Part shown: positions 35,521 to 51,347 of the stretch, piece after piece | How positions within the stretch are numbered: the stretch's first letter is position 1 | Layout of the letters: every line of letters begins with the position of its first letter | Assembly: GCA_963718615.1 (NCBI GenBank) | Contig: OY970368.1 | Location: forward strand, 5,536,001-5,600,000 | DNA length: 64,000 nucleotides | DNA from: an uncultured cyanobacterium | Lineage (GTDB): Bacteria; Cyanobacteriota; Cyanobacteriia; PCC-9006; JAAUQQ01 | Direction: 5' to 3' | The notes under the pieces: generated by a model | What the model was told of the DNA's origin: nothing | The model's input: only the letters and a program-made list of their open reading frames with translations | Database searches by the model: none | Program-made: the position numbers and the translations under genes

Positions 35521-36747
35521 CTAAGACAATGTTCCTACGTTATAGTAGGGCCTGAGGGCACGGGCGATCGCCCCGGCGGCCTGTTCGTAGTCTTCAACTT
35601 GGTCGAGCGATCGCGCCGTATCTTGTAACCCAACCTCAACGCTATCGTAGGTTGAGTAATGGTCAAACAGTTGCCTGAGCAAGTCTCCAAGGGTTTGGTT
35701 GCGAATTTTCGACCAATCGGCGGAGTTGGATTCAAAGGGATGATACAGACTGGAAAACAGCAGTAGTTTGGCGCGTAAAGGATTGGTGTACTGCATAATT
35801 TCGACGCGCAGATCCGAGAGGTCAGTGCGATCTTTGGGAGGCGTTAGAACCGAGCTATCAGGGCCTGGTTCTTGAGGAATTGCTTCTTGAGGAATTGCTT
35901 CTTGAGGGATTGGTTCTTCAAAACCCAAAGCTGCGGGGGGCAGACCCACTGCCGTTTCCATCAGTTCCTCGTCATCGAGATCGGCGGCATTAAAATCAGC
36001 GGCTAAGGACAACAGCGATTCGGGACTCAGGTTGGGTTCAGGGCTAGCTGCGAGTTCAGGGGATTGGGCCGCAGGAGGGCGATAAAGCGGGGTTAAACCC
36101 TCCAGAATACTCTGGGCCACCTGGGTATATTCCACGCGTCGATTGAGACTGGAGACCACGCGGTTCAGCAGACTGGCTAAGGTTTCTAGATCCGGGGCAA
36201 GCTGATGGAGCTGCTGCACCAAACTCGGCAGCTTGAAATAGGCCAAAACCTGGGGATCGTTTTCCCAACCGCCGCTACACACGCTGTAGAGCAATTTTTT
36301 GATCCGGTTGGCATTGGGGGATTGGGCCAGGGTGTTGGCGATCGCCTCATAGGGCGACTGCATCAAAGGCCCTGTATCTTCCGCTTCTCCACTCAAAATG
36401 CCGGTGACATCCAACCGCGCCAGCGCTGAAGCCGGATCTTGATAAAGCGGCCCAATGACCTTGAGAATGCCCTGCCCTAGGGCGACGTACTCGGTAGGAC
36501 GATTGAGACGAATCGCCAAATTATGCAGAGCAGTCCCCAGATCGCCTTGGGTGGGATGGGTCAACACTAATTCATGAATAATATCGCGCAATCGGTACTG
36601 CTCCAGAACCTTGGCATCACTCTCCCAAGCATTCTGGCAAACCGCAAAGGTCAACTTGCGGATGCGCAAATACTCGGGATGATTTTCGAGTTGTTGGGAT
36701 ACTTCATCGAGCAGCCAAGACGGTACCATCGATCTCCTCAGGAACAA
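35521..36747 (-). CDS. Hypothetical cyanobacterial protein with three related helical modules
   Basis: Repeated RIRKLTFAVCQNAWESD / RIKKLLYSVCSGGWEND / RAKLLLFSSL; IPQEA x3 linker. Confidence 0.7.
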   Translation of the reverse strand: MFLRRSMVPSWLLDEVSQQLENHPEYLRIRKLTFAVCQNAWESDAKVLEQYRLRDIIHELVLTHPTQGDLGTALHNLAIRLNRPTEYVALGQGILKVIGPLYQDPASALARLDVTGILSGEAEDTGPLMQSPYEAIANTLAQSPNANRIKKLLYSVCSGGWENDPQVLAYFKLPSLVQQLHQLAPDLETLASLLNRVVSSLNRRVEYTQVAQSILEGLTPLYRPPAAQSPELAASPEPNLSPESLLSLAADFNAADLDDEELMETAVGLPPAALGFEEPIPQEAIPQEAIPQEPGPDSSVLTPPKDRTDLSDLRVEIMQYTNPLRAKLLLFSSLYHPFESNSADWSKIRNQTLGDLLRQLFDHYSTYDSVEVGLQDTARSLDQVEDYEQAAGAIARALRPYYNVGTLS

Positions 36748-36870
36748 CCTATCGGGTCAGGAACACCCTACCAGGAACCTGACCCTCATCATACTCAGAT
36801 CTGAGCGGGGTTTCGATGAAACTTACTAGAAATTTCCCTTGACTAAAAATAAATCTCTGGAGAACTGCCC

Positions 36871-37908
36871 TTAGGGAACAGGGCTGGCGCTGAGGTCGGG
36901 ATGGAGAATTCCGTTGAGGATGGTCTCGGGTCGTTTTTCGTGTTTCCAGGCGAAGGCATGCTTAAAGGCAGCTTCCTGGCAGGCGCGCAGTTGCTCGAAG
37001 TCGATGATGTTGTGGGTGAGCAGGTTTTCGTATTCGAAGGGCAGTCGCACGTTGTGCAACCCGGCGTTGTCGGTGCAGATGGCGATATCAACACCCGCTT
37101 CAAAGCAGCGATCGAAAACGATTTTGAGCGGGTCAATGCTGGGAAGGGTGCCGGTCTTGGTATAGGTGGTGGGACAAACCTCTAGACATTGGCCTCGGGC
37201 GGCTAGGTCCTTGAGTAATTCGGGGTGTTTGAGGGGGATCTGGATGCCGTGGCCGATACGCTGGAGATAGGGCAAGAGGGCAGGATGGCAACCGGCTTCG
37301 GTTTCGTAGAGGTGGCCGGTGGTGTTGATCCCGAGGGATTGAGCGTATTGGTAGAGCTGGGTGAATTCTTCGAGGCGATCGCCATACAACCCATCTCCCC
37401 CCGCCACATCGATCCCACAGACATACTGAGGATAGGCCGCCGCCAAATCCACCATGGCCCGGTTGACTTCGTAGGGCAGCCGCGAGTGCATACAGAGAAT
37501 CTGGCTGTTGACGATCGGGTAGAGCGTCGATTGGCTGGCTTGACCGACCACTTCAATGATCTGGGCGGTGGCGTCGATGCGCTCGGTTTGGCTGAGGTGT
37601 TCGGGGGTGCGCAGGTAAGGGGTATAGCGCAGCTCCAGGTAGGCGAGGTTTTCAAAGACATAGGCCCCGCGCAGCAGCCGGTAGATGAAGTAAGGCAGGG
37701 TTTCGATCGTCTGCACTTTTTCAACGAGGGTGTGCAGTTCTAGGTATTCGGCAAGGGTGTTGCGGGGCCGGGTGTAGAAGTCTTCAAAGTCGCTGTAATC
37801 GGCAAACTGAGCGGATGGCTCGGATTCGTTGCGTTGAAAATAGCCCCAGAGAATTCGGGGTACAACAGAACCGCCTAGGTGGCGGTGCAGCTCGGCGTAG
37901 AGGGCCAT
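36871..37908 (-). CDS. Adenosine deaminase family protein
   Basis: AELHRHLGGS, GHLYE, RIGHG, EVCPT and CTDN motifs. Confidence 0.9.
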   Translation of the reverse strand: MALYAELHRHLGGSVVPRILWGYFQRNESEPSAQFADYSDFEDFYTRPRNTLAEYLELHTLVEKVQTIETLPYFIYRLLRGAYVFENLAYLELRYTPYLRTPEHLSQTERIDATAQIIEVVGQASQSTLYPIVNSQILCMHSRLPYEVNRAMVDLAAAYPQYVCGIDVAGGDGLYGDRLEEFTQLYQYAQSLGINTTGHLYETEAGCHPALLPYLQRIGHGIQIPLKHPELLKDLAARGQCLEVCPTTYTKTGTLPSIDPLKIVFDRCFEAGVDIAICTDNAGLHNVRLPFEYENLLTHNIIDFEQLRACQEAAFKHAFAWKHEKRPETILNGILHPDLSASPVP

Positions 37909-38082
37909 GGGGATAGAAGCTCCTGACTGATGAGAGGATGGCAAAGCACCTGCGCTCTGAGGATTTAGCTTTGCCGAAAAACTGGACGAATTAAACTTTA
38001 GGCCGCAACAATACTTTGGCGAGGGCACCTAGGATGCTCGCGATGCAAGCATTTGCGGGATTTAGGGTGAATTAGAGACATC

Positions 38083-41000
38083 CTAGCGCAGGCTGTTAAT
38101 TTTGGCCGCGTTTTTTTGAAATTTTCCAGGGGCACAGGCTAGCTGCGGCAATGCGACTGGTTCCGAGGATTGGGCGATGAGTTGGATGCCTTGGGGTGTG
38201 GTTTTCCAGGTGGTGGCTTCGAGGAGTGCGGGAGCGGGGGGCGACGGGTGCGATCGGGTGGAGGGGAATGTCTGGGGTGATGGGGTGACGGGGAGGGTGA
38301 CCCAGGTGGGGATCAGAGGTTGGGGGAAGGGTTCTTCTGGGCTGAGGGGAATACCGTTACGTCCGGTGATGATGAAGGAGCTGCGGCTGGCTTCACTGTT
38401 GGGAGAGCAACTATCGTCGATTCGATCGCTGGGGTCGGTGAGGGCTTCGGAGATCTGAAGGGTGCCTTGGCTGGGGTCAGTGTTGAGGCCGTTGAGATTG
38501 AGGATGCCGCTGGAGCCGAAGGCGGAGCTGGCGCTGATGTCGTTGGTTGTGTTGTTGCGGAGGGTGTTGACGTTGGGTTCGTCTTGCAACTGGAAGTTGA
38601 GGATGGCGTTGGCGTTGATGGTGATGTTGCCGCCGCTGCCGCTGAAGGCGTTAGCGATGATGTCGCTGTTTTCGTTGGGGAGACTGATCAGGAAGGGAGT
38701 GTTGATGGTGATGTTGCCGCCGTTTCCTGGGTTTTGACTATTTCCGGCGGTGGATGTAACTAAGCTAGCATTTCTCAACAAAAAAGATTGAGAATCTTTT
38801 TTGTCTATATCAATAACTATGTCACCTCCATTACCAAATGAGGAAACAGTCGACATCCCCCCTTTATCTAACGTTAGTTGAGCAGTGCTAATACCTATAG
38901 ACCCAGTTTCTCCCACTCCATCTGAAGCAGTAGTAATAAAGGGGAAGAGTTTATCCTGACTACTTTCTAAAATAGTTTCTCCATTTGCCTCAATTTTGAT
39001 ATTACCTGCATTACCTTTGCCAGAAGTTCGAGTTGAAATAAATGCCCCATCTCTGACCACAAAATTGTTTGTAAATATCTCTATTTTTCCTCCATTTCCT
39101 ATAGCTTCTGGTTCCACGGAAGTAGATATAAAGCTCTGTTTGCGTGATCTGTTATTTATACCATCTAAATAAACACTATTCCTAGCGCTTATCTTTAACT
39201 CACTTGCATCTCCTGTACCTTGCGTACTTGCGTTGATTCCTGCACCTCTAGTAATAACAATACTATCAGCTAAGATTTGAATGCTTTTGCCATTGCCAAT
39301 TGCTCCTGACGCAACAACGCTAGAAATACCGCTACCTACTGAGTTATTACGACCATCAAATTCAACTTTTCCTGCCACTGTAAGGTTTATCTCTCCGGTA
39401 TTCCCCACACCAGATGTTCCGACGCCTATTCCAGCTCCATTTGTTATTTTGATTTCTCCAGCATTAACATCAACTAATCCACCATCACCGACTGCACCTA
39501 CACCGACAATACTGCCGACACCACTAGCACCTTGCTCATCAGGTGTTGAACCATCAAAAGATGCTAGCCCTCTAACCGTGATGTTTATATCACCAGCATT
39601 CCCTTTCCCAAAAGTGCTAGCGTTTATGACTCCCCCATTTGTCGCCTTCAATAACTCTGTATCAATGCTAATTTTTCCACCATTTCCTACTGCCCCTGAT
39701 GCTACAATACTGCCAATTGTGCTAGGAAATTTGCCGCTTTCATCGGTACCATCAAGAAAAATACCATCTCTAGCTTGAATGAGAAGTATTCCAGCATCCC
39801 CTTCTCCAAAGGTACTTGTGTTGACGGTTGCGCCATTAACAATATTGAGCTCTCTCACGAAAAGCTCAATATTGCCAGCCTTTCCAACTCCATTATTGCT
39901 AACGCTGCTTCCAATAGTGCTACCGATATTATCAACTGAGCCAGTACTATCAAGAGAAACTACACCTGAGGCCTCAATTCTAAGATTGCCAGCGTTTCCC
40001 AGTCCTGAGGTTAAGCTACCTACGGTAGAGACTCCACTCAGACTCAAATCCTCTGTTTTCATCAACAAATTGCCAGCTGAACCAGTAGCACCATTGCTGA
40101 TTTCATTAATGATTAGGCTATCCCGTAGTCTAGTTTCTCTTTTGGTGCGGATTTGTATATCCCCAGATTTTGATTCAGGAGAACCCAAATCGAAGAAAAT
40201 TCCTGCTCCAAGAATACTTGAGTCTAGCAACTCTAAATTCTGGCTATTGACTTGTATATCACCACCTCCGCTCCAGCTAACAATTCCACGAGATTTTTCT
40301 CTGAATGAAATATCAGCCAGCTCTAAATTTTCTGGAAAGAGCAAGCTAAATTTTTCTGAGATTTCTACTTCTCCCATTCCTGCCACAGCACCTAAATCTA
40401 GCCTGCCTTCAAGTGCATACAATCCGCTTCCCACAACTTCAATGTCTCCTCCGAGCATCACGAGGCTTTTACCAATATCAACACCAATTCCAGTAAAAAA
40501 ATTTGGTAATGCAGGACTGAAAGGCCGTTTTGCTCTTACCTCGATTCTGCTTGGGGCTGCGTTTGTAAAAATGAATGAAGAGGGAAAAATTGTTAATAGT
40601 TCTGACACACTTCCCTTCTCTACACTAAATGTTCCCAGGGATTTGAATCTAACTCCTGTCGATGTCGATGCGATAAACGAGCCTCTTAAGTCAAGAGATG
40701 AATTCTCACCAAAGAGAATTCCGTTGGGGTTAAGAAAGAATAAATTTGCAGATGATGGCTGAAAAATACCATTAGAGAATCTCTTGAGTCCCTAGAGTTC
40801 CCAAAATATTCGATTTTTTGTTGCCTGTAATCCTAGCTAATACATTTTCAATTCCTGAATTAAAAATAAAAAATACGGAACGAAAACTACTAATGTCAAA
40901 ATTTTCAAAGCTATGAAATAAGTTTTTTCCTCGCTGTGCTCCACCTGAAACTAGGTCTACCTGCGGTATAAAATCTCGAGTTAATTGAGATGATTCTAAG

Positions 41001-41098
41001 CCTAAGCTTGTGTCTGGAATAATTTCCTGCAATCGCCCCACCTCCGCAGCCAAAGCCAAGCCACCAAGCCCCAACACCAAAACCGCTCGCAGTCCCAT
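38083..41098 (-). pseudogene. Filamentous haemagglutinin / TpsA-like secreted protein, frameshifted near 40775
   Basis: 5' ORF has a signal peptide and NLFHSF. The +1 frame continues NGIFQPSSANLFFLNPNGILFG into the 841-aa beta-helix ORF. Confidence 0.8.
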
Positions 41099-41183
41099 TC
41101 GTTACACCCTAGTTGACAAACACAATCATCCTACCGAGCCCCACCGCCCCCAGCCGCCACCCTCACTACAAATCTTCAATATC
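41027..41183 (-). repeat. TpsA promoter/leader repeat copy 1 (native)
   Basis: Core TCCTACCGAGCCCC...CAGCC...CAAATCTT plus the signal-peptide start (ATG 41098). Confidence 0.75.
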
Positions 41184-41369
41184 CGGCGGATGCCATCCAC
41201 TCAACACCCACCGTTCTCGCGCCTTCACAATCACCCAATCATTCATCCGCAGCGCCATCACCGTCGCCCGCCCAGTAGCCGTCAAGCCTTCCACTCGGCT
41301 TCCACCCGCCACCCAAGCAAAATGCTCAGTCCAACGCTGCTGCCTCGGATGAAACAATCGCACCCTTTC
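41166..41369 (-). pseudogene. 3' remnant of an HNH endonuclease (toxin-like) gene
   Basis: LFHPRQQRWTEHFAW...GLTATGRATV..LRMN..R..W...GWHPP is the family C-terminus; the N-terminal CxxC/HNH part is absent. Confidence 0.7.
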
Positions 41370-41776
41370 ACCAGCGGCTGAACGACCTGTCCACGCCACC
41401 GCAACAATGCAGCAGCATGGGCTTTACGCAACATGAATAAATCCGCCTCATGCCGCAACTTCTCAAGCTCCTGTTGCTCATGCAAGGGCAGCTCTCGTTC
41501 TTTTTTGAACTCTAACAGCTCGTCGTAGCGGTGTAGCTCATCCTCGGTACAACGAGCTTGAGCGACTTGCCACAGAGCTTCATCCTCCAAGCGATCCAGC
41601 GCCGCTAGCTCCGATTGAAATTGTGCTGGCACATCCTCCCAAGCTGGTGGACTCCCCACCGTTAATGCCCGCACAACAACCTCTTGCAACGGACGTCGCA
41701 TTGCAGCAGCAGTATTCACTAGCCGCAAATACAAAGCTTCAGGAAGTTCCAGCGTGACCGTTGCCGTTGACATCAA
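41282..41776 (-). CDS. Antitoxin-like partner of the HNH gene, with 3' read-through after a deletion
   Basis: VTLELPEALY RHH-like N-terminus, LEDEALW and LRKAHAAALLRWRG motifs. Confidence 0.65.
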   Translation of the reverse strand: MMSTATVTLELPEALYLRLVNTAAAMRRPLQEVVVRALTVGSPPAWEDVPAQFQSELAALDRLEDEALWQVAQARCTEDELHRYDELLEFKKERELPLHEQQELEKLRHEADLFMLRKAHAAALLRWRGQVVQPLVKGCDCFIRGSSVGLSILLGWRVEAEWKA

Positions 41777-41846
41777 GAGACTGCCTTCATCGTTGCTTAG
41801 AGTCTAGTCATATTCTAGTGCCACTTCATCAAAAATAAAGCAGCCT

Positions 41847-41988
41847 TGCAAACCCCGGCCCCGCCACCAAAGCCACCCAACCCAACCCCAAAAATACCCC
41901 GCATTCCCATAATCCGCACCAGACTCAGCCAACCCAATCATCCTACCGAGCCCCCACCCACCCAGCCGCCATTCCCACTACAAATCTT
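41847..41988 (-). repeat. TpsA promoter/leader repeat copy 2 (orphan signal-peptide stub)
   Basis: Same core; ATG 41910 MGMRGIF..., shifted frame LGLGWVALVAGPGFA. Confidence 0.75.
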
Positions 41989-42010
41989 TAGACCTCCGGG
42001 ACAGCCCTGG

Positions 42011-42415
42011 CTACCAGATCGTCTCGATTACCGTTAGAGTCTGAATCTTGTGATCGCAAGTGACTAACGGTAAGCCTAATGCTAGCGCTGTTACTGCAAT
42101 CATGCGATCGCCCATTTCCGGCACAGTAACTTTTGGAACTTGCCGAAGCTGCTGTGCAATTTCCAAGCTAAACGACACCACTTTCAGACCCGAGTCAGAA
42201 TCCTGTAATACTTGATAGAGCATCTCTAGCGCAGCTTCAGGCAACCGCCCTTTTTCAACCAGATACGTGATTTCAACAATCGAAATTGAAGAGATGTAGA
42301 CAACATGACCAGAGGCTATTGCTTCCTCAATTCTGCTACTTGCGAGATCTGAAATTCTAGGAGAATCTAGCAACCACTAGACCACCGCGTGAGTATCCAG
42401 CACCAGCGAAGTCAT
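42011..42415 (-). pseudogene. vapC: VapC (PIN) toxin with a nonsense mutation
   Basis: ATG 42415 MTSLVLDTHAVV*WLLDSP (TAG at 42377-42379, probably from TGG); SISIVEI, DRMIAVTA and LVTCD motifs. Confidence 0.85.
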
Positions 42416-42666
42416 AACTCAATTTCCTCACCAAACCCACTCCACATTTCTCGGCGAGCCTCTAAGAAATCGGTTTCTGTCAAAGGATCAATGTCAAGGT
42501 TCGACCACAGACCCTTTAAACTTTTGGGAAGGCGACGCGTTGGAATCAAACGATCTTTCAGAAACTCTACAAAGTCCAACACCGTTTGTTGCTGTTTGCT
42601 TGGCAACGAGCGCAGGCTGTCAAAGATAGCCTGCTGAAGACTGACAAGATTCTGCATAATTTTCAT
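42412..42666 (-). CDS. DUF2281-like antitoxin
   Basis: LPSKQQQTVLDFVEFL...SLKGLW...EARREMW; 4-bp overlap with vapC. Confidence 0.8.
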   Translation of the reverse strand: MKIMQNLVSLQQAIFDSLRSLPSKQQQTVLDFVEFLKDRLIPTRRLPKSLKGLWSNLDIDPLTETDFLEARREMWSGFGEEIEL

Positions 42667-42715
42667 CCAAACCTGTTCTTTTCGCACTACTCTCTTCCCT
42701 TCCTCATTATGCCAG

Positions 42716-42837
42716 CCCAATCCGACCCCCAAAACACCCCGCAGTCTCATAAATCTACCCCCAGACTCAACTAACCCCACCCTCCTACCGAGCCCCACCG
42801 TCTCCAGCCACTACACCTCCCACAAATCTTCAACATC
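42716..42837 (-). repeat. TpsA promoter/leader repeat copy 3
   Basis: Same core; ATG 42750 MRLRGVLGVGLGW. Confidence 0.75.
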
Positions 42838-42987
42838 TATTTAGAAAAGCTGCGAGATAATTGCCTCAGTACCCGCTCACCGTCGAACTCCCTCGCAGAT
42901 CAACCTCGCAGATCAACGATCCAAAAGAAGAATGCAGCTACGTTCATCCTCACAGGATCCCTCCCTCCAATTTCTCCCCGAACAAAG

Positions 42988-43371
42988 ATGAATCGCTTTC
43001 TCCAATTCCAAGCCAATACCTTTCAGTTTCCTGGCCAAGGTAAAGCCATCAAAAATAGAACGGCTCTTCATCTTGCCGTCCTCAGCGACGACGCAGCACA
43101 ACTGGAATTTTTGCTGACCCACAATGCCTCGCCCAACGCCCGTGATGCCCAGGGCCATACGCCCTTTCACTATGCGATCGCCAGCAGAAACATCGCCCTA
43201 GCCGAGCGCCTCCTAGAGGCGGGGGCAGATATTAATGTGCGCGATCGCCAACGCCGAACTATCCTCACCATTCTCACCGATCCCAAACTTGCAAAACTCC
43301 CAATCGATTCCGGCGATTTAAGCTTTGAACAACGGGTTAGCTTCTTGCAAAGCAAAGGCGCAATTCGATAG
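42988..43371 (+). CDS. Ankyrin repeat protein (possibly 5'-truncated)
   Basis: TALHLAV and GHTPFHYA..LLEAGADIN motifs. Confidence 0.8.
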   Translation: MNRFLQFQANTFQFPGQGKAIKNRTALHLAVLSDDAAQLEFLLTHNASPNARDAQGHTPFHYAIASRNIALAERLLEAGADINVRDRQRRTILTILTDPKLAKLPIDSGDLSFEQRVSFLQSKGAIR

Positions 43372-43500
43372 CAGTCAAGCCAGTAGCCGCCAAGCCAGTG
43401 ATCTTTCTCGTATATATTGCGAGATGTAAACAAGTCCCACAGCTTCCAGCCTGAACCAGAGAAAATCAGAACATCCACCACTTTGGACCAGATTCACACC

Positions 43501-43959
43501 ATGAATCGACGCGACTTCTTGTCCTGGATGGGGGTTAGCACCCTCGCCACTTCTTTGCCCATGGCGATCGCCGCCTGTAGCAGCCCCACCAGCACCACTC
43601 CCCCCGCTGCCGATTCTGCCACCAGTACTGCCCCCCCCGATACCGCTAGTGCGCCTGAACCCGTGAACCTGGGCACCGTTGATGACCTCAAAGTAAAAGG
43701 TAGCCTCGTTGTCGAACAGCCCGAAAAGATCATCGTCGTGCAAGATCCTCAAAATCCTGACGCCGTCATCGCCCGCACCGCCAACTGCAACCACAAAAAC
43801 TGCACCGTGGGCTGGCAAGCGGACAAGGGTGAATTTGTCTGCCCCTGCCATGACTCCCGCTTTGCCCTGGATGGCAGCATTCTCGCAGGCCCCGCCACCG
43901 AGCCGCTCAAAGTCCTCACGGCCTCCGTCGAAAATGGGCAAGTCGTCGTCACCATGTAG
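43501..43959 (+). CDS. Rieske [2Fe-2S] lipoprotein with Tat signal (PetC3-like)
   Basis: MNRRDFL Tat motif, IAAC lipobox, CNH..CPCH. Confidence 0.88.
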   Translation: MNRRDFLSWMGVSTLATSLPMAIAACSSPTSTTPPAADSATSTAPPDTASAPEPVNLGTVDDLKVKGSLVVEQPEKIIVVQDPQNPDAVIARTANCNHKNCTVGWQADKGEFVCPCHDSRFALDGSILAGPATEPLKVLTASVENGQVVVTM

Positions 43960-43997
43960 CGCTGTACCCCGCTAAAATTTCGCTGCTAAATTTTGCT

Positions 43998-44774
43998 TTG
44001 ATTGAGCTTCAGTCGGTTCAAGTTGTGTTCAATCCCGATACCCCGCTGGAATCCCTCGCCCTGCGGGGCATTGACGTACAAATTCCAGCGGGACAATTTG
44101 TCACGGTTATTGGCAGCAATGGTGCAGGCAAGTCTACCTTGCTCAATGTCCTCAGCGGCGAAATTTTGCCCCAAGCGGGCCGGGTAAAAATTGCGGACCA
44201 AGTCGTGACCCGCTGGCCCGTAGCCAAGCGATCGCCCCTCGTTTCCCGCGTCTTCCAAAACCCGCTCCTCGGCTCCTGTGCTGACCTCACGGTGGAAGAA
44301 AATCTTGCCCTCGCCTACCAGCGGGGCCAGCGGCGGCGGTTGCGTTGGGCCTTAAATCGATCGCTGCGGGAGGAGTTTCGCGATCGCCTCTCCCGGCTCG
44401 GTCTGGGTTTAGAAAACCGGCTCGGCGATCCCATGGGTCGGCTCTCTGGGGGGCAGCGCCAAGCCATTTGTCTATTTATGGCCACCCTGGCCACCCACAA
44501 AATTTTGCTCCTGGATGAACATACCGCCGCCCTCGATCCGAAAACCGCTGATTTTGTGCTGGAACTCACGCGGGAACTGGTGGCACAGCAGGGGCTGACG
44601 ACGTTAATGGTCACCCATAGTATGCGGCAGGCCTTGGAGGTGGGCGATCGCACCCTCATGCTCCACGATGGCCAAATTGTTTTTGATGTGCAAGGGGCAG
44701 ACCGAGCCAGCTTGAGCGTGGATGATTTGCTCCAACGATTTCAGCGATTGGAAGATCTGTCCTACGAGGTCTAG
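43998..44774 (+). CDS. ABC transporter ATP-binding protein (COG1101 type)
   Basis: GSNGAGKST, LSGGQRQ and LLDEHTAALDP motifs. Confidence 0.92.
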   Translation: MIELQSVQVVFNPDTPLESLALRGIDVQIPAGQFVTVIGSNGAGKSTLLNVLSGEILPQAGRVKIADQVVTRWPVAKRSPLVSRVFQNPLLGSCADLTVEENLALAYQRGQRRRLRWALNRSLREEFRDRLSRLGLGLENRLGDPMGRLSGGQRQAICLFMATLATHKILLLDEHTAALDPKTADFVLELTRELVAQQGLTTLMVTHSMRQALEVGDRTLMLHDGQIVFDVQGADRASLSVDDLLQRFQRLEDLSYEV

Positions 44775-45176
44775 GTCATGCCTGTATTTTTGCGGAGTAA
44801 TTTTCAGATTTGAGCTAACGCTTTTGGTGCGTCAAGAGATAGAAGATTCGATAATTTTGCGTTCCTGTCGATTTGTACCGTTTTCGTATTTTTACCGGAT
44901 ATAGCAGTTGTAAACTCCCTCTATATACGTGAGTTTTTCGGTGACTAAAAGTATCGCTGAGAATAAAAACATTATCCTGTTTTCAGAGCATACTTTTGAA
45001 TCTCAGAATTGAGAAATTCCCGACAAAATTTGTAGATAATTCGTGAAGTCTTTGAGCCTTAGAGACTAAAACTTCACTCAAATTGGTTATTTACAACGAG
45101 GGGTATCGCTGAAGATAGAAGACCTAGACTTGCCTTAACCTAGAAAGCGTTGCATGGCCTTTGATGTTCTACATTC

Positions 45177-47933
45177 ATGCTAAATTCCACCACTAGCTCC
45201 TCCGATCTTCAGGGTTTCTACAAGACCATTGCGCCATGGATTGATCTCTATTTATCCTCTCCCTATGGCATGAGCGGGTTGGATCAAAACTCAATGACCC
45301 AACTACTCAATGATCCTACGTTCAGTACAGTTCTGGGAGAATACCTATCTACAGCAGTGGCTCCAGCGTTACTCGATGGCTTGAGCGACGAAACCATCGA
45401 AACCACGCTCCTAAAGGCCATGCAAGCCGGGTGGGATCAGGGAAAAGCTGAGGATTCCCTTTGCCCTATGCCAGAAGTCCTAGCGAGTGATCCAACGGTG
45501 GACCTAGGCGGTAATGATGCCACAAACGCGTTCAGCTTGACGTTGACCGAGGGGAAGGCGATCGCCCAGGACTGGATCGGCCTCAATGGGGATTCTCGAG
45601 ACTACTATCGTTTTAATCTAGAACAGTCCGGGACTCTCTCCGTTACGCTCAGTGGCTTGAGCGATAACGTTAATATGCAACTGTTTAATGAACAAGGCCA
45701 ACGGGTTGGGGCCTCCTATACTGGCGGTACCCAAGATGACGTGATTAGCGGAACGTTTCAAGCGGGAAGCTATTATGTCGCCCTGTTTGGTAAAACGCCT
45801 GATGTGCAGACATCCTATTCTCTAAACATTCAAGGACCAGCATCCTTACCGGCTCCGATTGCACCGGTCTCGCCTGCAACCACCACAGAACCCACATCAA
45901 CGCCGACCGCAACGCCGACCGCAACGCCGACCTCAACGCCTCAAAGCACGCTCAATCCCAGCCTAGACGGGGCGGGAGATGGGTTTGATACGGCTCGGCT
46001 GCTCACCTGGGATAGGGGACAGGCGATCGCCCAGGACTGGATCGGTGTCAATGGCGATTTGAAAGACTACTATCGATTTGCGATCGCCCAAACGGGCGAT
46101 GTCATGGTAACGCTCAGTGGTTTAAGCGATAACGCGAACCTACAACTCTTCAATAATCAGGGCCAGCGGATCGGTGCGTCCTATGCGGGCGGTACCCAGA
46201 ATGATGTGATTGCCAGTAAGCTCGCTGCTGGGGATTACTACGCCGTTGTCTTTGGCAAAACCACGGATGTGAAGACGGCCTATACCCTCACCCTCAAAGG
46301 CCCCACGGCAGAGCCAACCCCCCTAGAGCCAGCTTCCGTTGACCCAACATCCATCGAGCCCGAGCCCTCAGAGCCAGATCCTTTACCCAGCCCCAATCCC
46401 AATATAGATTTAGCCGGAGATACGTTTGGCACGGCCTATCAACTTGATCTTAGTCAAGGATCGGCAACGGTGCAAGATTGGATGGGGCTAAATGGTGATG
46501 TGCGAGATTACTATTCCTTTGATGTCGCCAAGGCCGGTGAAGTCACGGTTACGCTCAGCGGTCTCAGTGACAATGTCAATCTCCAACTGTTTAATAGCCA
46601 AGGCCAGAGAATTGCAGCTTCCTACGCTGGGGGCACTCAAAATGATGTGATTGCCCAAACGCTGGCCGAGGGTACTTATTCGGTCATGCTATTTGGCAAA
46701 ACGAGTGATGTTAAAACCGCTTATACACTGTCCGTTGTAGCCCCGGTTGCGGATGCGACTGATCCGACGACAGCTCCTGAATCTGTACCGACTGTTCCCC
46801 AAACCAATCCCATCTCTGAGCCTGTTTCTGAGCCTAATTCTGAGCCCGTGTTCGATTGGTTTAGTAACAATCTTCAGGATGCGGAGCTGAAGAGTATGGC
46901 GCGCGATCGCTTCCAGGATGGCAAGATCGATCGCAATGATATGATTGCACTGCTGCAATCAGCGGGGGATGCAAATGTTGTCGACAGCGCTGAATTTGCT
47001 GATCTCAAAACCCTCGTGAGTTCAGCCGCTTATCTCAAGCTCGATGACTACGTTGTCAATTTGTCCAACAAGTTGGTGAATGGCGATCGCGCCAACCAAT
47101 GGTATACCGGCGGTGCAACTCAGCGGACGGATCTGGGTAATTTGCAGGCGGGGAGCAGTGCCGACCAGTTGAATAAGCTGATTGGTAAATGGTTCTTGGG
47201 GAGCGATCGCCCCACCACGCTGTCTACCTCCCACCAATATACCTATGTCCAAGGACAGCTGTTCCAGAATGGGATTCAGCTTGAAGATATTGTTCAATCC
47301 CAACTGGGCGATTGTTACTTGATGGTGGTTTTGGCTGGCACCGCCCAGAAACATGCCAATGTGATTCAAGATATGTTTATTGACAACGGTGACGGTACGT
47401 TTACAGTGCGATTCTTTAAGAATGGCGTCGCGGACTATGTCACGGTCGATCGCTATCTGTCCTCAATCAACGGTACCGGCAAGAGCCCCTATACACAATT
47501 TGGCAGTTCGCCCACCAACAGCAGCAACGAACTCTGGGGGGCATTGCTAGAAAAAGCCTATGCTCAGCTCAATGAGTCGGGTTGGGTTGGCCAAGACAAT
47601 ACCAACAGCTATGCAGGAATTGAAGGGGGTTGGATGTCTATGCCCACCAGCCAAGTGCTAGGAGTGAGAAGCCGCTCGGTTGCAATTACAAGCAGCAGCA
47701 TTTCTAAGGCCAGCATGATTGATTTGGTCAATTCTCAACAGGTGGTCACCGTGGGTATCGTGGGAGCGGGTCAGTATGGCGCGGTGGATAACCATGCCTA
47801 TACGCTCAAGGGCTATGATGCAGTCACTCAAACCTTCCAATTGCATAACCCTTGGGGTACAAAGCACATCAGCTTGACCTGGGAGCAATTACAGAGCATG
47901 GGCACTAACTTTGTCTGGTCGGAGCTGGCCTAG
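45177..47933 (+). CDS. Calpain-like (peptidase C2) cysteine protease with three PPC domains
   Basis: Three DYYRF...LSGLSDN.NLQLFN PPC repeats with P/T-rich linkers; QLGDCY, LLEKAYA, NHAY and HNPWG catalytic motifs. Confidence 0.88.
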   Translation: MLNSTTSSSDLQGFYKTIAPWIDLYLSSPYGMSGLDQNSMTQLLNDPTFSTVLGEYLSTAVAPALLDGLSDETIETTLLKAMQAGWDQGKAEDSLCPMPEVLASDPTVDLGGNDATNAFSLTLTEGKAIAQDWIGLNGDSRDYYRFNLEQSGTLSVTLSGLSDNVNMQLFNEQGQRVGASYTGGTQDDVISGTFQAGSYYVALFGKTPDVQTSYSLNIQGPASLPAPIAPVSPATTTEPTSTPTATPTATPTSTPQSTLNPSLDGAGDGFDTARLLTWDRGQAIAQDWIGVNGDLKDYYRFAIAQTGDVMVTLSGLSDNANLQLFNNQGQRIGASYAGGTQNDVIASKLAAGDYYAVVFGKTTDVKTAYTLTLKGPTAEPTPLEPASVDPTSIEPEPSEPDPLPSPNPNIDLAGDTFGTAYQLDLSQGSATVQDWMGLNGDVRDYYSFDVAKAGEVTVTLSGLSDNVNLQLFNSQGQRIAASYAGGTQNDVIAQTLAEGTYSVMLFGKTSDVKTAYTLSVVAPVADATDPTTAPESVPTVPQTNPISEPVSEPNSEPVFDWFSNNLQDAELKSMARDRFQDGKIDRNDMIALLQSAGDANVVDSAEFADLKTLVSSAAYLKLDDYVVNLSNKLVNGDRANQWYTGGATQRTDLGNLQAGSSADQLNKLIGKWFLGSDRPTTLSTSHQYTYVQGQLFQNGIQLEDIVQSQLGDCYLMVVLAGTAQKHANVIQDMFIDNGDGTFTVRFFKNGVADYVTVDRYLSSINGTGKSPYTQFGSSPTNSSNELWGALLEKAYAQLNESGWVGQDNTNSYAGIEGGWMSMPTSQVLGVRSRSVAITSSSISKASMIDLVNSQQVVTVGIVGAGQYGAVDNHAYTLKGYDAVTQTFQLHNPWGTKHISLTWEQLQSMGTNFVWSELA

Positions 47934-48044
47934 GGGGGGTATTGATACGATCCTGGACTCATGGGTTGATTAACCAGCAGGTCATTCCGTAAAATTGCGG
48001 CTATGAGGCGATAACCTTTCGTCACAACGTAACCGGATAGGGAC

Positions 48045-51000
48045 ATGACTCAAACATGGTGGCAGGGGCTGAGCTGGGCGTTAGTCGCCTGGAGTGGGCT
48101 GTGGGTGAAGTCAGGCTTGGCCCAAAATCTGGTAATCGATGGCACGCTGGGAGTCCCAGGCACGAGTGGGGCGTTACTGGGACCGATTTATGATGTTCCC
48201 CAAGGGTTAGGCAGTCGCCAAGGGCAGAATCTATTTCACAGTTTTAGTCAGTTTAGTTTGCAAGTGGGAGAGGAAGCTCGGTTTGAAGCGGGGCCAGAAA
48301 TTCGCAATATTTTGACGCGGGTGACGGGAGGGAGCGCTTCGCAGATTGACGGAGTAATTTCGACACCAAGTTCGACGGCGAATTTCTTTTTGATGAATCC
48401 TGCGGGATTAGTATTTGGGCCGAATGCGCAGCTTGATCTGGGCGGTTCGTTTGTAGGGACGACGGCGAGTAGGGTACGGTTTGGGGAATTCGGCGAATTT
48501 AGTGTGGTGAATCCGCAGGCCCCTGCACTGTTGACGATCGATCCGTCGGCGTTGCTGTTTGGGGTGGCACCGGGCCAGATTGTGAGTCGCTCGGTGGCTC
48601 CGGCAGGGGTGAGTCCGAGTGGGCGATCGCTCTTCGGCCTTACTGTCTCTCCGGGCCAAAGCCTTGCCTTGGTTGGGGGCGATATCACGGTTGATGGGGG
48701 TGGGGTCATTGGGGGACTGAATGCCCAGGGGGGTTGGTTGGAACTAGGAGGTTTAGCCAATGCAGGATCTGTTGATTTGGCAAGTTTGGGTACCAGCGGT
48801 TGGCGGTTGGTTTTTCCTGGGGATGCGGCTTTGGCGAATGTTCGTTTGGTGAATGGTGCGCGGGTGAATGTGCGGGGAGTAGGGGGGGGCGATATTCGGG
48901 TGAATGCGAATCGTTTGTTGGGGGAAGATGGGGGGCGGTTAATTGCGGGTACGGAGGGTAATGGTGATGCGGGTGATCTGATCGTTAATGCGAAGACGAT
49001 CGAATTTCGGGGACAGGTTGTTAATGCGAATCAAGAGGTTATTGCAGCTTCTGGAGCCTCGAATGATGTCGCTGATAATGCAACAGCCAATAGCGGACTA
49101 ACGCAGTTGAAGGGCGATCGCCTCATCCTCTCAGCGGGGGCGCAAGTGGGTAATGCTACGTTTGGAGATGGAGATAGTGGGCCTGTCGTGTTGGAGTTTC
49201 AAGATGCTATTATATTAGATGGATTAGATAAAAAAGATACTGGAATTTTCAGTCAAGTTTTTAATACAAATACTTTGGTCAATAGTGGCGATCTGCGCAT
49301 CAAAACACCAAGACTTCAAGTCACGAATGGTGCACAGATTTCAAGTGCGATTTTTGGCACAGGCAATGGAGGCTTGATCAGGATTGATGCCGATGAAATT
49401 ATTCTCACTGGCCGAGTGAGTTGTGGCAATGACTGTAATTTTGCGAGTAGCATTGCTAGTGGTACCGATAATGGCGCAGAGGGAAATGGAGGCGATATCG
49501 AAATTTTCACAGATTCTTTGACAATATCAGATGGCGCTGACATAAATTCTTTTTTGAGAGGTCGGGGTAAAGGGGGGGATATTACAATTGAGGGGCGCGA
49601 GTTTGTTGAGCTTGATGGTTCCCCTTCTACAATTAATACATCGATTTTCCCGGACGGTGTGGGAAATGGCGGAAATATTACTTTGAGTACGCCTACTTTA
49701 TCCTTGCATAGAGGAGCATTTATTGAGTCTGGAAATAGTGGTGGGAAGGGTGATGCTGGAGATATTTCTATCACAAGCGATCGCCTAGAAATTTCACAAT
49801 TGGGTGAAGATTCTAAATTTTCTGGTGCTATCAGCAGTCAGTCTAACGGTAAAGGTGATTCAGGTGCTATCACAATTGATGCATCACAGATTATCTTTCA
49901 GGATGAAGGGGGTATGTTTGCTGGCGTCTTTATATTTGATGAGTTTAATGTTGTTGCCGAAGGAAGTGGCCAAGATATCCAAATTAAAGCTCAATCTTTG
50001 TATTTGAACAATTTTTTGATTACTACTCAAGTTTCCGGCAATGGAACTGCGGGTAATATTAGAATTCAAGCAGAAGGTCCCGTCTCATTAGAGTCGAGTA
50101 GTATATCTACAGCCTTTGGTGGTGTAGAAAGTATCGGACAAGCGGGAAATGTACAAATTAATGCCCAATCATTAAACCTGAAAGATAGCAGTATCATCAG
50201 TATCACTCGAGCGAAAGGAGATTCAGGCTCAATTACACTTCAAACGCGTGAAGATATACGTTTAGACGGTAAGACTCTCTTGGGTAGTTCTGTAACAGAT
50301 GAAAGGAGCTCTGGGCGAGCCCAGGATATCAGTCTGGAAGCCAGAGCAATTTGGATTGGAGAGGGGGTTATTTTACTTTCTGCCAATGTGGCTCAGAATG
50401 ATGCTGGTGCAATTCGGCTCAAGGCTCGCGATCGCATCGACATCGGTCAAGAAGCATCATTATTCAGCAGCACGTTCGGCGCTGGAAAAGCTGGAGATAT
50501 TTTGATTGACACCCCTGTTCTGACGATGGCTGTAGGGAGTCAGTTAAGGAGCGAGTCCTTACAGATTAATTCAGAAGATGGGGGGGTGGGAACAGCGGGA
50601 AACATTGAGATTGCGGGCGATCGCCTAACCGTCAACGGAGCCACAATTTCCACCAACAGCGCTAACACCGACGGCGGCAACATCCGCTTCAACCTCAGCG
50701 ACGCCGTTCTCTTTTCCAACAATAGCCTCCTTTCCACAAATGCAGGTACCGCCCAAGGCGGTGGCAATGGCGGGAACATCACCATTAACACTCCCTTCCT
50801 AATCGGTTTACCCAACAACAATAGCGATATAATCGCCAACGCCTTCAGCGGCAGCGGCGGCAAGATTCAGATCACGACCCAAGGAATCCTGAATTTTGAC
50901 CTTGCCAACAATCAAACAGATACCCAACTTCGAGCTAATACAACCAACGACATTAGCGCCAGTTCTCAACTAGGAACTTCCGGCATACTCACCCTCACCG

Positions 51001-51347
51001 GCTTCAATACAGACCCGAGCCAAGGAACCGTTGCACTGTCTGAAACCTTCACCGATCCAACCGATCAAATCGATCGCAGTTGCTCCCCCGAAGGCATCAT
51101 CCTCAGCGAGTTCTTCATCACCGGGCGCAGCGGACTGCCCCTCAGTCCCGATGAATCCTTCTCTACCGACCTCCTCGCTGGTTGGGTGCCTCTAGCGGAA
51201 CAAGGCCCAAACCTAGCCGTTGCCGAACAGTCTCGCCGCCCTAGGGCCACAATGGTCCTCGAAGCCTCGGCGTGGGAGCGCGATCGCCAAGGCCAAATTC
51301 ATCTGACGGCACCGAAGCCCGTGGAGAGGCGATCGCCTACTTGCTAA
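48045..51347 (+). CDS. Filamentous haemagglutinin / TpsA-like secreted protein
   Basis: Signal peptide, NLFHSF, MNPAG TPS domain, G-x-G-x-I repeats, conserved SDIIANAF..DISASS..FFITGRSGLP C-terminus. Confidence 0.9.
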   Translation: MTQTWWQGLSWALVAWSGLWVKSGLAQNLVIDGTLGVPGTSGALLGPIYDVPQGLGSRQGQNLFHSFSQFSLQVGEEARFEAGPEIRNILTRVTGGSASQIDGVISTPSSTANFFLMNPAGLVFGPNAQLDLGGSFVGTTASRVRFGEFGEFSVVNPQAPALLTIDPSALLFGVAPGQIVSRSVAPAGVSPSGRSLFGLTVSPGQSLALVGGDITVDGGGVIGGLNAQGGWLELGGLANAGSVDLASLGTSGWRLVFPGDAALANVRLVNGARVNVRGVGGGDIRVNANRLLGEDGGRLIAGTEGNGDAGDLIVNAKTIEFRGQVVNANQEVIAASGASNDVADNATANSGLTQLKGDRLILSAGAQVGNATFGDGDSGPVVLEFQDAIILDGLDKKDTGIFSQVFNTNTLVNSGDLRIKTPRLQVTNGAQISSAIFGTGNGGLIRIDADEIILTGRVSCGNDCNFASSIASGTDNGAEGNGGDIEIFTDSLTISDGADINSFLRGRGKGGDITIEGREFVELDGSPSTINTSIFPDGVGNGGNITLSTPTLSLHRGAFIESGNSGGKGDAGDISITSDRLEISQLGEDSKFSGAISSQSNGKGDSGAITIDASQIIFQDEGGMFAGVFIFDEFNVVAEGSGQDIQIKAQSLYLNNFLITTQVSGNGTAGNIRIQAEGPVSLESSSISTAFGGVESIGQAGNVQINAQSLNLKDSSIISITRAKGDSGSITLQTREDIRLDGKTLLGSSVTDERSSGRAQDISLEARAIWIGEGVILLSANVAQNDAGAIRLKARDRIDIGQEASLFSSTFGAGKAGDILIDTPVLTMAVGSQLRSESLQINSEDGGVGTAGNIEIAGDRLTVNGATISTNSANTDGGNIRFNLSDAVLFSNNSLLSTNAGTAQGGGNGGNITINTPFLIGLPNNNSDIIANAFSGSGGKIQITTQGILNFDLANNQTDTQLRANTTNDISASSQLGTSGILTLTGFNTDPSQGTVALSETFTDPTDQIDRSCSPEGIILSEFFITGRSGLPLSPDESFSTDLLAGWVPLAEQGPNLAVAEQSRRPRATMVLEASAWERDRQGQIHLTAPKPVERRSPTC

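Follow-up and report, generated by a model that had tools for sequence, protein, structure and literature searches.

Three starts for one TpsA adhesin gene: a probable scar of serial cassette insertion with long target duplication in a cyanobacterial genome

In the genome of an uncultured cyanobacterium (GCA_963718615.1, contig OY970368.1) the start of a gene for a TpsA adhesin occurs three times in a row, and small genes of toxin-antitoxin (TA) type lie between the copies. The question raised by this locus is how a gene comes to have three starts, only one of which continues into it, and what the genes between them have to do with it. The window, i.e. the whole stretch of 64,000 nucleotides (nt) that was analysed, corresponds to C1:5536001-5600000 of the 6.1-Mb genome, which is a single contig; positions are those of the window unless preceded by C1. 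The array lies entirely on the minus strand, where the order in 5′ to 3′ direction is copy T3, a DUF2281/VapB-like gene, a PIN gene, copy T2, a gene of an uncharacterised family of ~133-aa proteins, a remnant of an HNH endonuclease gene, copy T1 and the TpsA gene itself. As argued below, the array is probably the scar of two successive insertions of TA-type cassettes into the 5′ end of the TpsA gene, each accompanied by a long duplication of the target.

The copy adjoining the gene, T1 (41027..41183), consists of ~85 nt of upstream sequence, an ATG at 41098 and the first 24 TpsA codons. T2 (41847..41995) and T3 (42716..42837) are stubs, the former with the upstream region, an ATG at 41910 and about 21-24 codons, after which it reads as a dead-end open reading frame (ORF) of 31 codons, and the latter with the upstream region, an ATG at 42750 and ~12 codons. 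Aligned to each other, the copies comprise 85-87 nt ahead of the ATG and an initial coding part of 24 codons in T1 and T2 and of ~12 in T3, and they are separated by inserts of 662 and 720 nt. The initial annotation of this stretch had described three copies in which the motif TCCTACCGAGCCCC begins at 41129, 41941 and 42783, with periods of 812 and 842 nt, and both the repeat search and the alignment confirm this start-to-start spacing. It had also stated that only the first copy continues into the haemagglutinin-type gene, which is borne out, as T1 alone runs on into a gene with a TPS domain, though a frameshifted one. Stub ORFs such as the 31-codon 'signal peptide' are not genes.

The similarity between the copies is far above chance. 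A core of 68 nt found by the repeat search shows ungapped identities of 76-78% among T1-T3, and in a MAFFT alignment the likeness extends over 120-157 nt, with 68-78% identity overall. Pairwise local alignment scores are 50-58, as compared to 12-14 ± 2 for 500 dinucleotide shuffles per pair (z 18-21); none of the 500 shuffles reached the observed score, and the similarity is thus not a chance effect of C-rich composition. When each copy was compared by blastn to the whole genome, only the three local copies matched (E 1e-10 to 1e-14), which rules out a dispersed repeat or a genome-wide miniature inverted-repeat transposable element. Each copy has sharp edges at either side, and no two joints have the same flanking sequence, as a target-insert-target order would predict. 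The region 40500-43300 gave no Rfam family match at E up to 1, and a plasmid origin found no blastn match among 72,556 plasmid records. A G-quadruplex motif was considered and dropped, since four G-runs are present in copy 2 alone and are not conserved in the alignment when inspected by eye. Homology of the upstream half of the stubs to the 3′ flank of a paralogous HNH gene (see below) was rejected as well: for copies 2 and 3 the scores of 21-26 stay below the highest shuffle scores (29-33) and are not significant, and the score of copy 1 arises from the HNH coding part.

Judged from their sequence, the copies are real duplicates of a TpsA leader together with the start of the signal peptide. 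Their ATGs open the peptides MGLRAVLVLGLG, MGMRGIF and MRLRGVLGVGLGW (T1 to T3). A minus-strand hexamer, TAGGAT in T1 and T2 and TAGGAG in T3, ends 29, 29 and 31 nt before the ATG. The −10-like TAGGAT box first ascribed to all three copies at 31-33 nt from the ATG accordingly needs a slight correction in its distances and one in T3, which is without the final T; for T1 and T2 the hexamer itself stands. The nearest TpsA paralogue by signal peptide, located at C1:5727067, has TAGAAT 29 nt before its ATG and the signal peptide MRLQNILGVGFGW. Because of this 29-nt distance and the similar signal peptide, T1-T3 are considered true TpsA gene starts. A block of 14 nt, GGGGCTCGGTAGGA (41129..41142, 41941-41954 and 42783-42796), is invariant in all three copies and overlaps the −10-like hexamer. 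The ATG of T3 is in frame with the DUF2281-like ORF that follows it, with no intervening stop.

PIN, HNH and TpsA, i.e. three genes of the locus, are all damaged in this genome. TpsA is read in two frames, with a first part (40772..41098, 108 codons) that contains the signal-peptide-like start and positions 3-81 of the TPS domain (PF05860), and a second part (38083..40767) with a repeat-rich body in addition to TPS positions 85-251. The shift of frame near 40776-40792 falls within the TPS domain; it may be a sequencing error. The TPS scores are the weakest among the 24 TpsA loci of the genome. Between T1 and T2, the ~133-aa-family gene (41390..41776, a protein of 129 aa) belongs to an ORF that here continues across a deletion joint as far as 41282. 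Relatives of the gene number 395 at E ≤ 1e-5 and are as a rule 'hypothetical proteins' of 133-134 aa from cyanobacteria, Sorangium and Chloroflexi. The label 'ribbon-helix-helix (RHH)-like' given to it earlier is unproven, as the protein has no match in Pfam, NCBIfam or the PDB sequences (the latter at E up to 1). The adjoining HNH remnant (41166..41399) has its final codons and stop inside T1. It aligns to residues ~74-137 of a 138-aa paralogue (C1:5339632-5340048), so that 64-77 C-terminal residues are kept and ~73 N-terminal residues are missing. The Pfam HNH motif of the paralogue is at residues 19-65; the Pfam scan gave no HNH hit for the remnant, and the catalytic motif is absent.

Between T2 and T3, the PIN-domain (VapC-type) toxin gene (42011..42415, 134 codons) is clearly recognised (Pfam E 6e-15), and the small gene ahead of it (42412..42660) is a putative antitoxin with weak matches to DUF2281 (21.4 bits, cut-off 26.5) and VapB (22 bits), both below the cut-offs. 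The TGA of this gene overlaps the ATG of the PIN gene as ATGA, and the layout is that of a VapBC pair; the toxin frame is not intact, as there is an in-frame TAG at codon 13 (42377-42379). Two contigs from environmental RNA libraries, 98-99% alike to this region, read C at 42378 and hence TGG at codon 13, so that the stop appears to be specific to this genome, or an error. The description of the two inserts as co-oriented TA pairs thus holds for the orientation and for the PIN toxin; the DUF2281 assignment is weak, only a C-terminal remnant of HNH is present, and the RHH-like partner is unsupported. With 68-78%, the identity of the copies is the lowest among the TA-bearing loci of this genome described below, together with loci L033 and L043. 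Together with the truncated HNH and the frameshifted TpsA gene, this identity suggests that the array is old and decaying.

A known process produces structures of this kind. Insertion with long target duplication was reportedly described for restriction-modification (R-M) genes by Nobusato et al. in 2000. A paper by Furuta, Abe and Kobayashi (2010, PMC2853133) documents it for R-M genes in Helicobacter, Haemophilus, Neisseria, the cyanobacterium Microcystis and others; since the repeats often include the start or stop of translation, the target gene is preserved. The criteria given there are direct repeats of >30 bp, an insert of <20 kb without a mobile-element gene, a repeat that is not dispersed, the presence of R and M genes, and a related empty site. 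At the present locus the repeats are longer than 30 bp (122-157 nt), the inserts are small and without a mobile-element gene, and the repeat is not dispersed. The cargo is not R-M, consisting of PIN with the DUF2281-like gene and of the 133-aa-family gene with the HNH remnant. As far as sequence can tell, the structure matches insertion with long target duplication, here with type II TA cargo that would have been inserted twice in series.

In the sequence of events that we favour, the 133-aa-family/HNH cassette would have come in first, with a duplication of the whole ~157 nt up to codon 24. The DUF2281-like/PIN cassette would have entered later, with duplication of a shorter piece of ~122 nt that reaches to about codon 12. 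The boundaries suggest that this second insertion took place in the distal stub and not beside the live gene. Since the duplications take in the promoter region together with the start codon and the codons after it, TpsA would have kept a full start of its own, and beyond each cassette a truncated stub would be left. Candidate mechanisms are a staggered break followed by fill-in, homologous recombination with a circle in which a single target copy is present, and homology-facilitated illegitimate recombination of taken-up DNA. The repeat structure would probably be kept when the cargo is addictive, since cells that lost such cargo through recombination of the repeats would pay a penalty.

Clues to the order come from the copies themselves. 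T1 and T3 have GAT(A/G)TTG just ahead of AAGATTTG, which T2 does not, and T2 extends to codon 24 whereas T3 reaches only to ~codon 12. Among the coding positions T2 and T3 agree best (26 of 32), as compared to T1-T2 with 42 of 69 and T1-T3 with 26 of 39. Over the whole shared region the copies are equally diverged, so that the proposed order is based on the boundaries together with 32-69 coding positions; it is an interpretation and not a result.

Whether the process is peculiar to TpsA was addressed by a census of the genome. The sequence was compared to itself in 8-kb pieces (blastn, word size 9, E ≤ 1e-6), which gave 702 hits, and the 233 direct repeats with a length of 70-260 nt and a distance of 300-2500 nt were kept. 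After removal of pairs within one ORF 123 were left, and after removal of pairs with both copies in ORFs of ≥150 aa 40 clusters of local direct repeats were obtained, with the present locus included. Pfam scans of ORFs of ≥60 aa covered 55 of 66, 74 of 92 and 150 of 224 ORFs listed, those omitted being flanking or overlapping ORFs and all of cluster L060. TA-type Pfam genes are found between the repeats in 15 of the 40 clusters and other nuclease or toxin genes in a further 8. The TA families represented are PIN, ParE, MazF, BrnT/BrnA, HepT/MNT, Fic-Doc, AbiEii, DUF433/DUF5615, UPF0175/DUF3368, DUF4160 and XisH. PIN genes are strongly concentrated there: 6 of the 25 PIN matches in the genome fall inside clusters, which together span 1.19% of the sequence (binomial 4e-7).

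The clusters other than the present one can be described by their cargo. PIN is accompanied by DUF2281 in L026 and L043, by ParE in L033, by a 105-aa partner in L034, by MazF in L038 and by UPF0175/DUF3368 in L057, and PIN_3 occurs with DUF4160 in L044. L025 contains both DUF433/DUF5615 and UPF0175/DUF3368, L029 Fic-Doc with an 81-aa partner, and L030 AbiEii with the 133-aa-family gene and HNH. BrnT/BrnA is found in L032, HepT/MNT in L035, ParE in L045 and XisH in L049. The remaining nuclease or toxin clusters carry Uma2 (L040, L041, L054, L055 and L056), HSDR_N (L037), Tox-PL-2 with IS3 (L028) and an Arr-like gene (L050). Three copies with two cassettes, as at TpsA, are also present at L025, L026 and L038.

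At these other loci the duplicated piece is the end of a neighbouring gene, either 5′ or 3′, and its length varies between 70 and 255 nt. 5′ ends including the start codon are duplicated for argS (142 nt, 96%), ureC (80 nt, 96%) and a GDSL lipase gene (87 nt, 90%), and likewise for a TPR-glycosyltransferase gene and TPR-CHAT genes; 3′ ends are duplicated for cobN (157 nt, 99%), hsdM, mscS and a WD40 gene. The joints are sharp throughout and the outer and inner flanks unrelated. The repeat units are unique to their locus except for L025, with seven regional copies that are leaders of paralogues, and L026/L027, where the unit is common to two paralogous TPR-CHAT loci. Since the same scar recurs at many unrelated genes, the insertion process is unlikely to be specific to adhesin genes and seems, with reasonable confidence, to be a general way in which this genome acquires or keeps selfish cassettes. 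Of the proposal that TA cassettes were captured serially with the adhesin promoter and leader as recombination anchor, serial insertion of two co-oriented cassettes remains the best reading; the role of the leader as anchor is not supported, as the scar is found at unrelated genes and also at their 3′ ends. Joints of inserts show no preference for the sequence GCGATCGC, which we take to be the HIP1 palindrome motif: its density is 1.45 per kb, and it lies within 25 nt of 6 of 108 joints, as compared to 7.4% of random positions, so that it is not enriched.

Some of the loci illustrate the scar in more detail, and repeats that are 99-100% identical, and hence young, occur at the ParE cassette of cobN, at the Arr-like cassette and as a pair of 201 nt at L044. 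At L045 (C1:1279427-1282911) an 84-aa ORF and ParE lie between repeats of 157 nt with 99% identity (locus positions 1201-1357 and 2129-2285). These copy the 3′ end of a cobN/Mg-chelatase gene, and a stub ORF of 70 aa matches the last 36 residues of CobN; the event appears to be of the same kind and very recent. At L029 (C1:5713500-5718500) the repeats at locus positions 1411-1552 and 2265-2406 contain argS sequence from its upstream region to codon 20. L050 (C1:1918676-1922175) contains a single gene with an Arr-ms (rifampin ADP-ribosyltransferase) domain between perfect repeats of 78 nt (locus positions 1201-1278 and 2223-2300). The five Uma2 loci have genes for putative restriction endonucleases between repeats of 70-87 nt, and Uma2 genes may share their mode of movement with the TA pairs.

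Several observations weigh against the insertion reading. No empty site was found in the sequences compared, which include no genome of the same genus, with zero hits of pattern scans for the leader in genome contigs and zero in metagenome contigs; a looser pattern gave two hits, both due to chance and in unrelated high-GC sequence. As many as 17 of the 40 clusters, the unscanned L060 among them, are without recognised selfish cargo. Over the whole shared region the site patterns of the three copies are star-like (18/17/16). The 14-nt block is invariant in copies that otherwise have ~54% invariant sites (p ~0.02 as a rough estimate), and could mark a recombination core or a selected promoter and not passive duplication. 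The 24 TpsA loci, several of them in tandem, and the similarity of the stub signal peptides to a paralogue elsewhere (72-73% to C1:5727067, i.e. as near as the 61-67% to T1) point in the same direction, as they suit another origin of the stubs.

In that alternative two more TpsA paralogues once stood in tandem with the present gene, each with a TA pair downstream, and the stubs are what was left when their bodies were deleted and the promoter and first codons kept, perhaps because the TA pair needed the promoter. In addition to the number and tandem arrangement of TpsA genes, because of which this origin stays live for the present locus, it can draw on the identity between T2 and the paralogue at C1:5727067 (38 of 44 nt), on the equal 29-nt distance of TAGAAT from the ATG of that paralogue, and on an environmental contig in which a T2-like leader runs into an intact-looking signal peptide. 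The stubs at L025 and L026/L027 likewise belong to families with several regional copies. The cost is considerable: two independent deletions of ~3 kb are needed that start 12-24 codons into the gene and end 55-70 nt before the next cassette, and all three copies would need the same upstream edge within ~8 nt. Nor can paralogue remnants account for the same structure at single-copy genes such as argS, ureC, the GDSL lipase gene and cobN, where this origin is ruled out. Taken together, we consider it an unlikely explanation of the array, and insertion with target duplication remains preferred.

Comparison with relatives adds little to this choice. In a DNA search of 40 relatives, matches were confined to the TPS coding part and to fragments of the cassette genes; the top-ranking TpsA of the family shares 36% identity, so that no orthologue is available for comparison. 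Close relatives, at 98-99% identity, are seen in soil and wetland sequencing runs. Eight sequencing runs each contain ≤12% of the sampled words of the locus, and four of them yielded no joints and contigs of 111-325 nt, which are too short for an empty-site test and carry no information on excision or on the parts that they do not cover. Environmental contigs cover the PIN/T2 edge (41974-42191), where one agrees with the present arrangement, and a contig over the 133-aa-family gene ends at 41836, ~10 nt short of the T2 boundary. A contig from a soil metagenome matches the T2 leader (41892-41960) with 8 differences in 69 nt, and its coding side is an unlike, intact-looking signal peptide; a relative may have a T2-like leader on a whole gene.

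The initial annotation had called the array integron-like, and one version of this idea is that a recombinase encoded elsewhere recognises the leader core with the invariant 14-nt block and inserts circular cassettes at it, as in an integron or an att islet. The conservation of that block in copies which otherwise differ at ~46% of aligned sites would fit, as would the co-orientation and similar size of the two cassettes. The copies are however unlike attC sites. Their single-strand folds are no better than those of shuffles on either strand (z −0.84 to +0.88 in six folds) and no inverted repeats were found within them, so that the hallmark of attC is absent and an attC-like hairpin at the cassette boundaries is ruled out; the lack of Rfam matches agrees with this. 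In the genome there are only five Phage_integrase matches, the nearest more than 1.7 Mb away. A Pfam scan of the ORFs in 35521-51347 revealed no integrase, transposase or other mobile-element gene, and no intI lies beside the array, just as had been noted from the first. At the other cassettes the flanking repeats are unrelated sequences that vary in length, and inspection by eye of the joints from 17 repeat pairs revealed no common end motif, which does not fit the site of a single recombinase. Site-specific capture is therefore very improbable, and the integron-like label is not retained.

A further proposal concerns function and is compatible with insertion and target duplication: the stubs may have been kept as active promoters with a 5′ untranslated region for the cassette behind them, which would make the array a selected regulatory structure. 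Both cassettes are co-oriented with the stubs, the invariant block overlaps the −10-like hexamer at the distance from the ATG seen in the paralogue, and the frame of T3 is open into the antitoxin ORF. Contigs from RNA libraries cover PIN, the antitoxin/PIN joint and the PIN/T2 edge, though such contigs show neither transcript starts nor strand and could originate from DNA. Against this, a simple sigma-70 scan of 40900-43100 found no promoter on the minus strand, the hexamer of T3 is without its final T, and in both cassettes −10-like words of their own are seen by eye between the stub and the start codon. At other loci the repeat is a 3′ gene end, or the cargo is on the strand opposite to the host gene (L025, L026, L029 and L032), from which it follows that a duplicated promoter is not what the cargo needs. 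Expression of the cassettes from a duplicated promoter, as initially suggested, is possible at this locus; as an account of why the stubs were kept, we hold it to be a serious option but not the expected one.

Similar to R-M genes inserted with long target duplication, the cassettes described here are small selfish units without transposase or integrase that lie between genome-unique direct repeats of variable length (tens to hundreds of bp). They differ in cargo, which is of type II TA character (PIN, MazF, BrnT, HepT, ParE, Doc) and not a DNA-cutting R-M system, and in being arranged in serial, nested arrays at a total of at least 15 TA-bearing loci in one genome. Further, the cases of PMC2853133 rest on genome comparison, whereas the present ones are read from one genome. 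The paper tentatively proposes DNA breakage by the cargo as the cause, with which RNase-type cargo sits poorly as a common explanation. The accessible part of a 2013 review (PMC3874152) names long target duplication for R-M systems only, and in the literature searched, as far as the texts were accessible, it is not described for type II TA pairs.

Other known arrays resemble the locus in part. Chromosomal integrons often carry TA cassettes, and their rows of small co-oriented cassettes split by a repeated element, with TA pairs as typical cargo, recall the present array; here, however, there is no intI, attI or hairpin-forming attC, and the repeat is the start of the neighbouring gene and not a site borne by the cassette. 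Tandem accretion of islands at tRNA genes also leaves repeated stubs of the target gene between successive inserts and one intact target. It depends on site-specific integrases and short identical cores, unlike the inserts of 0.5-2.4 kb found here, which are without recombinase genes and target the ends of protein-coding genes. Truncated TpsA-family pieces alternating with small genes are furthermore reminiscent of the orphan toxin/immunity cassettes of cdiA/tpsA. Those cassettes lie 3′ of the gene, with alternative C-terminal toxin domains and immunity genes, whereas the present stubs are 5′ of the gene, contain only the leader and 12-24 codons, and accompany ordinary cytoplasmic TA genes.

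To our knowledge, the movement of chromosomal TA pairs is largely unexplained, since most have no transposase or integrase. In this genome at least 15 TA-bearing loci and 8 nuclease or toxin loci carry the scar. Most of the toxins, being RNases or enzymes of other kinds, leave DNA uncut; cutting of DNA by the cargo would then not be required by the mechanism, and the scar could serve as a general footprint of the arrival or persistence of addictive cassettes. For annotation this implies a simple rule, whereby an inserted cassette is to be suspected wherever a truncated gene start or end recurs at a distance of a few hundred bases. A more far-reaching and rather speculative idea, to which we give little weight, is that TA cassettes have an integrase-free life cycle: they would loop out with one copy of the target, travel as a circle or as taken-up DNA, and re-insert by homologous recombination at the same gene end, with the repeats protected by addiction. 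If so, gene ends such as the TpsA leader would be reusable docking sites that build arrays, a RecA-driven 'integron without integrase'.

Two groups of loci show more complex arrangements. L030 (C1:5337000-5345500) contains AbiEii, two 133-aa-family/HNH pairs and a 118-aa gene, and is adjoined by IS21-type genes. It has two interleaved sets of direct repeats (171 nt, 89%; 106 nt, 77%), the order of which is unfit for one simple insertion. L026 (C1:4360500-4366500) and L027 (C1:5069000-5075500) are TPR-CHAT paralogues that each have three upstream copies of the same leader, with small ORFs between the copies, including DUF2281/PIN; they reflect either duplication of a whole array or parallel insertions.

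In the surroundings of the array, a 408-aa ORF on the minus strand (35521-36747) has no Pfam or NCBIfam match. On the plus strand, 45177-47933 encodes a protein of 918 aa in which PPC domains are combined with a calpain-type cysteine peptidase domain. Located 3′ of this gene (48045-51347, plus strand) is a second, intact TpsA paralogue (TPS E 1.8e-46), of which the leader is unrelated to T1-T3.

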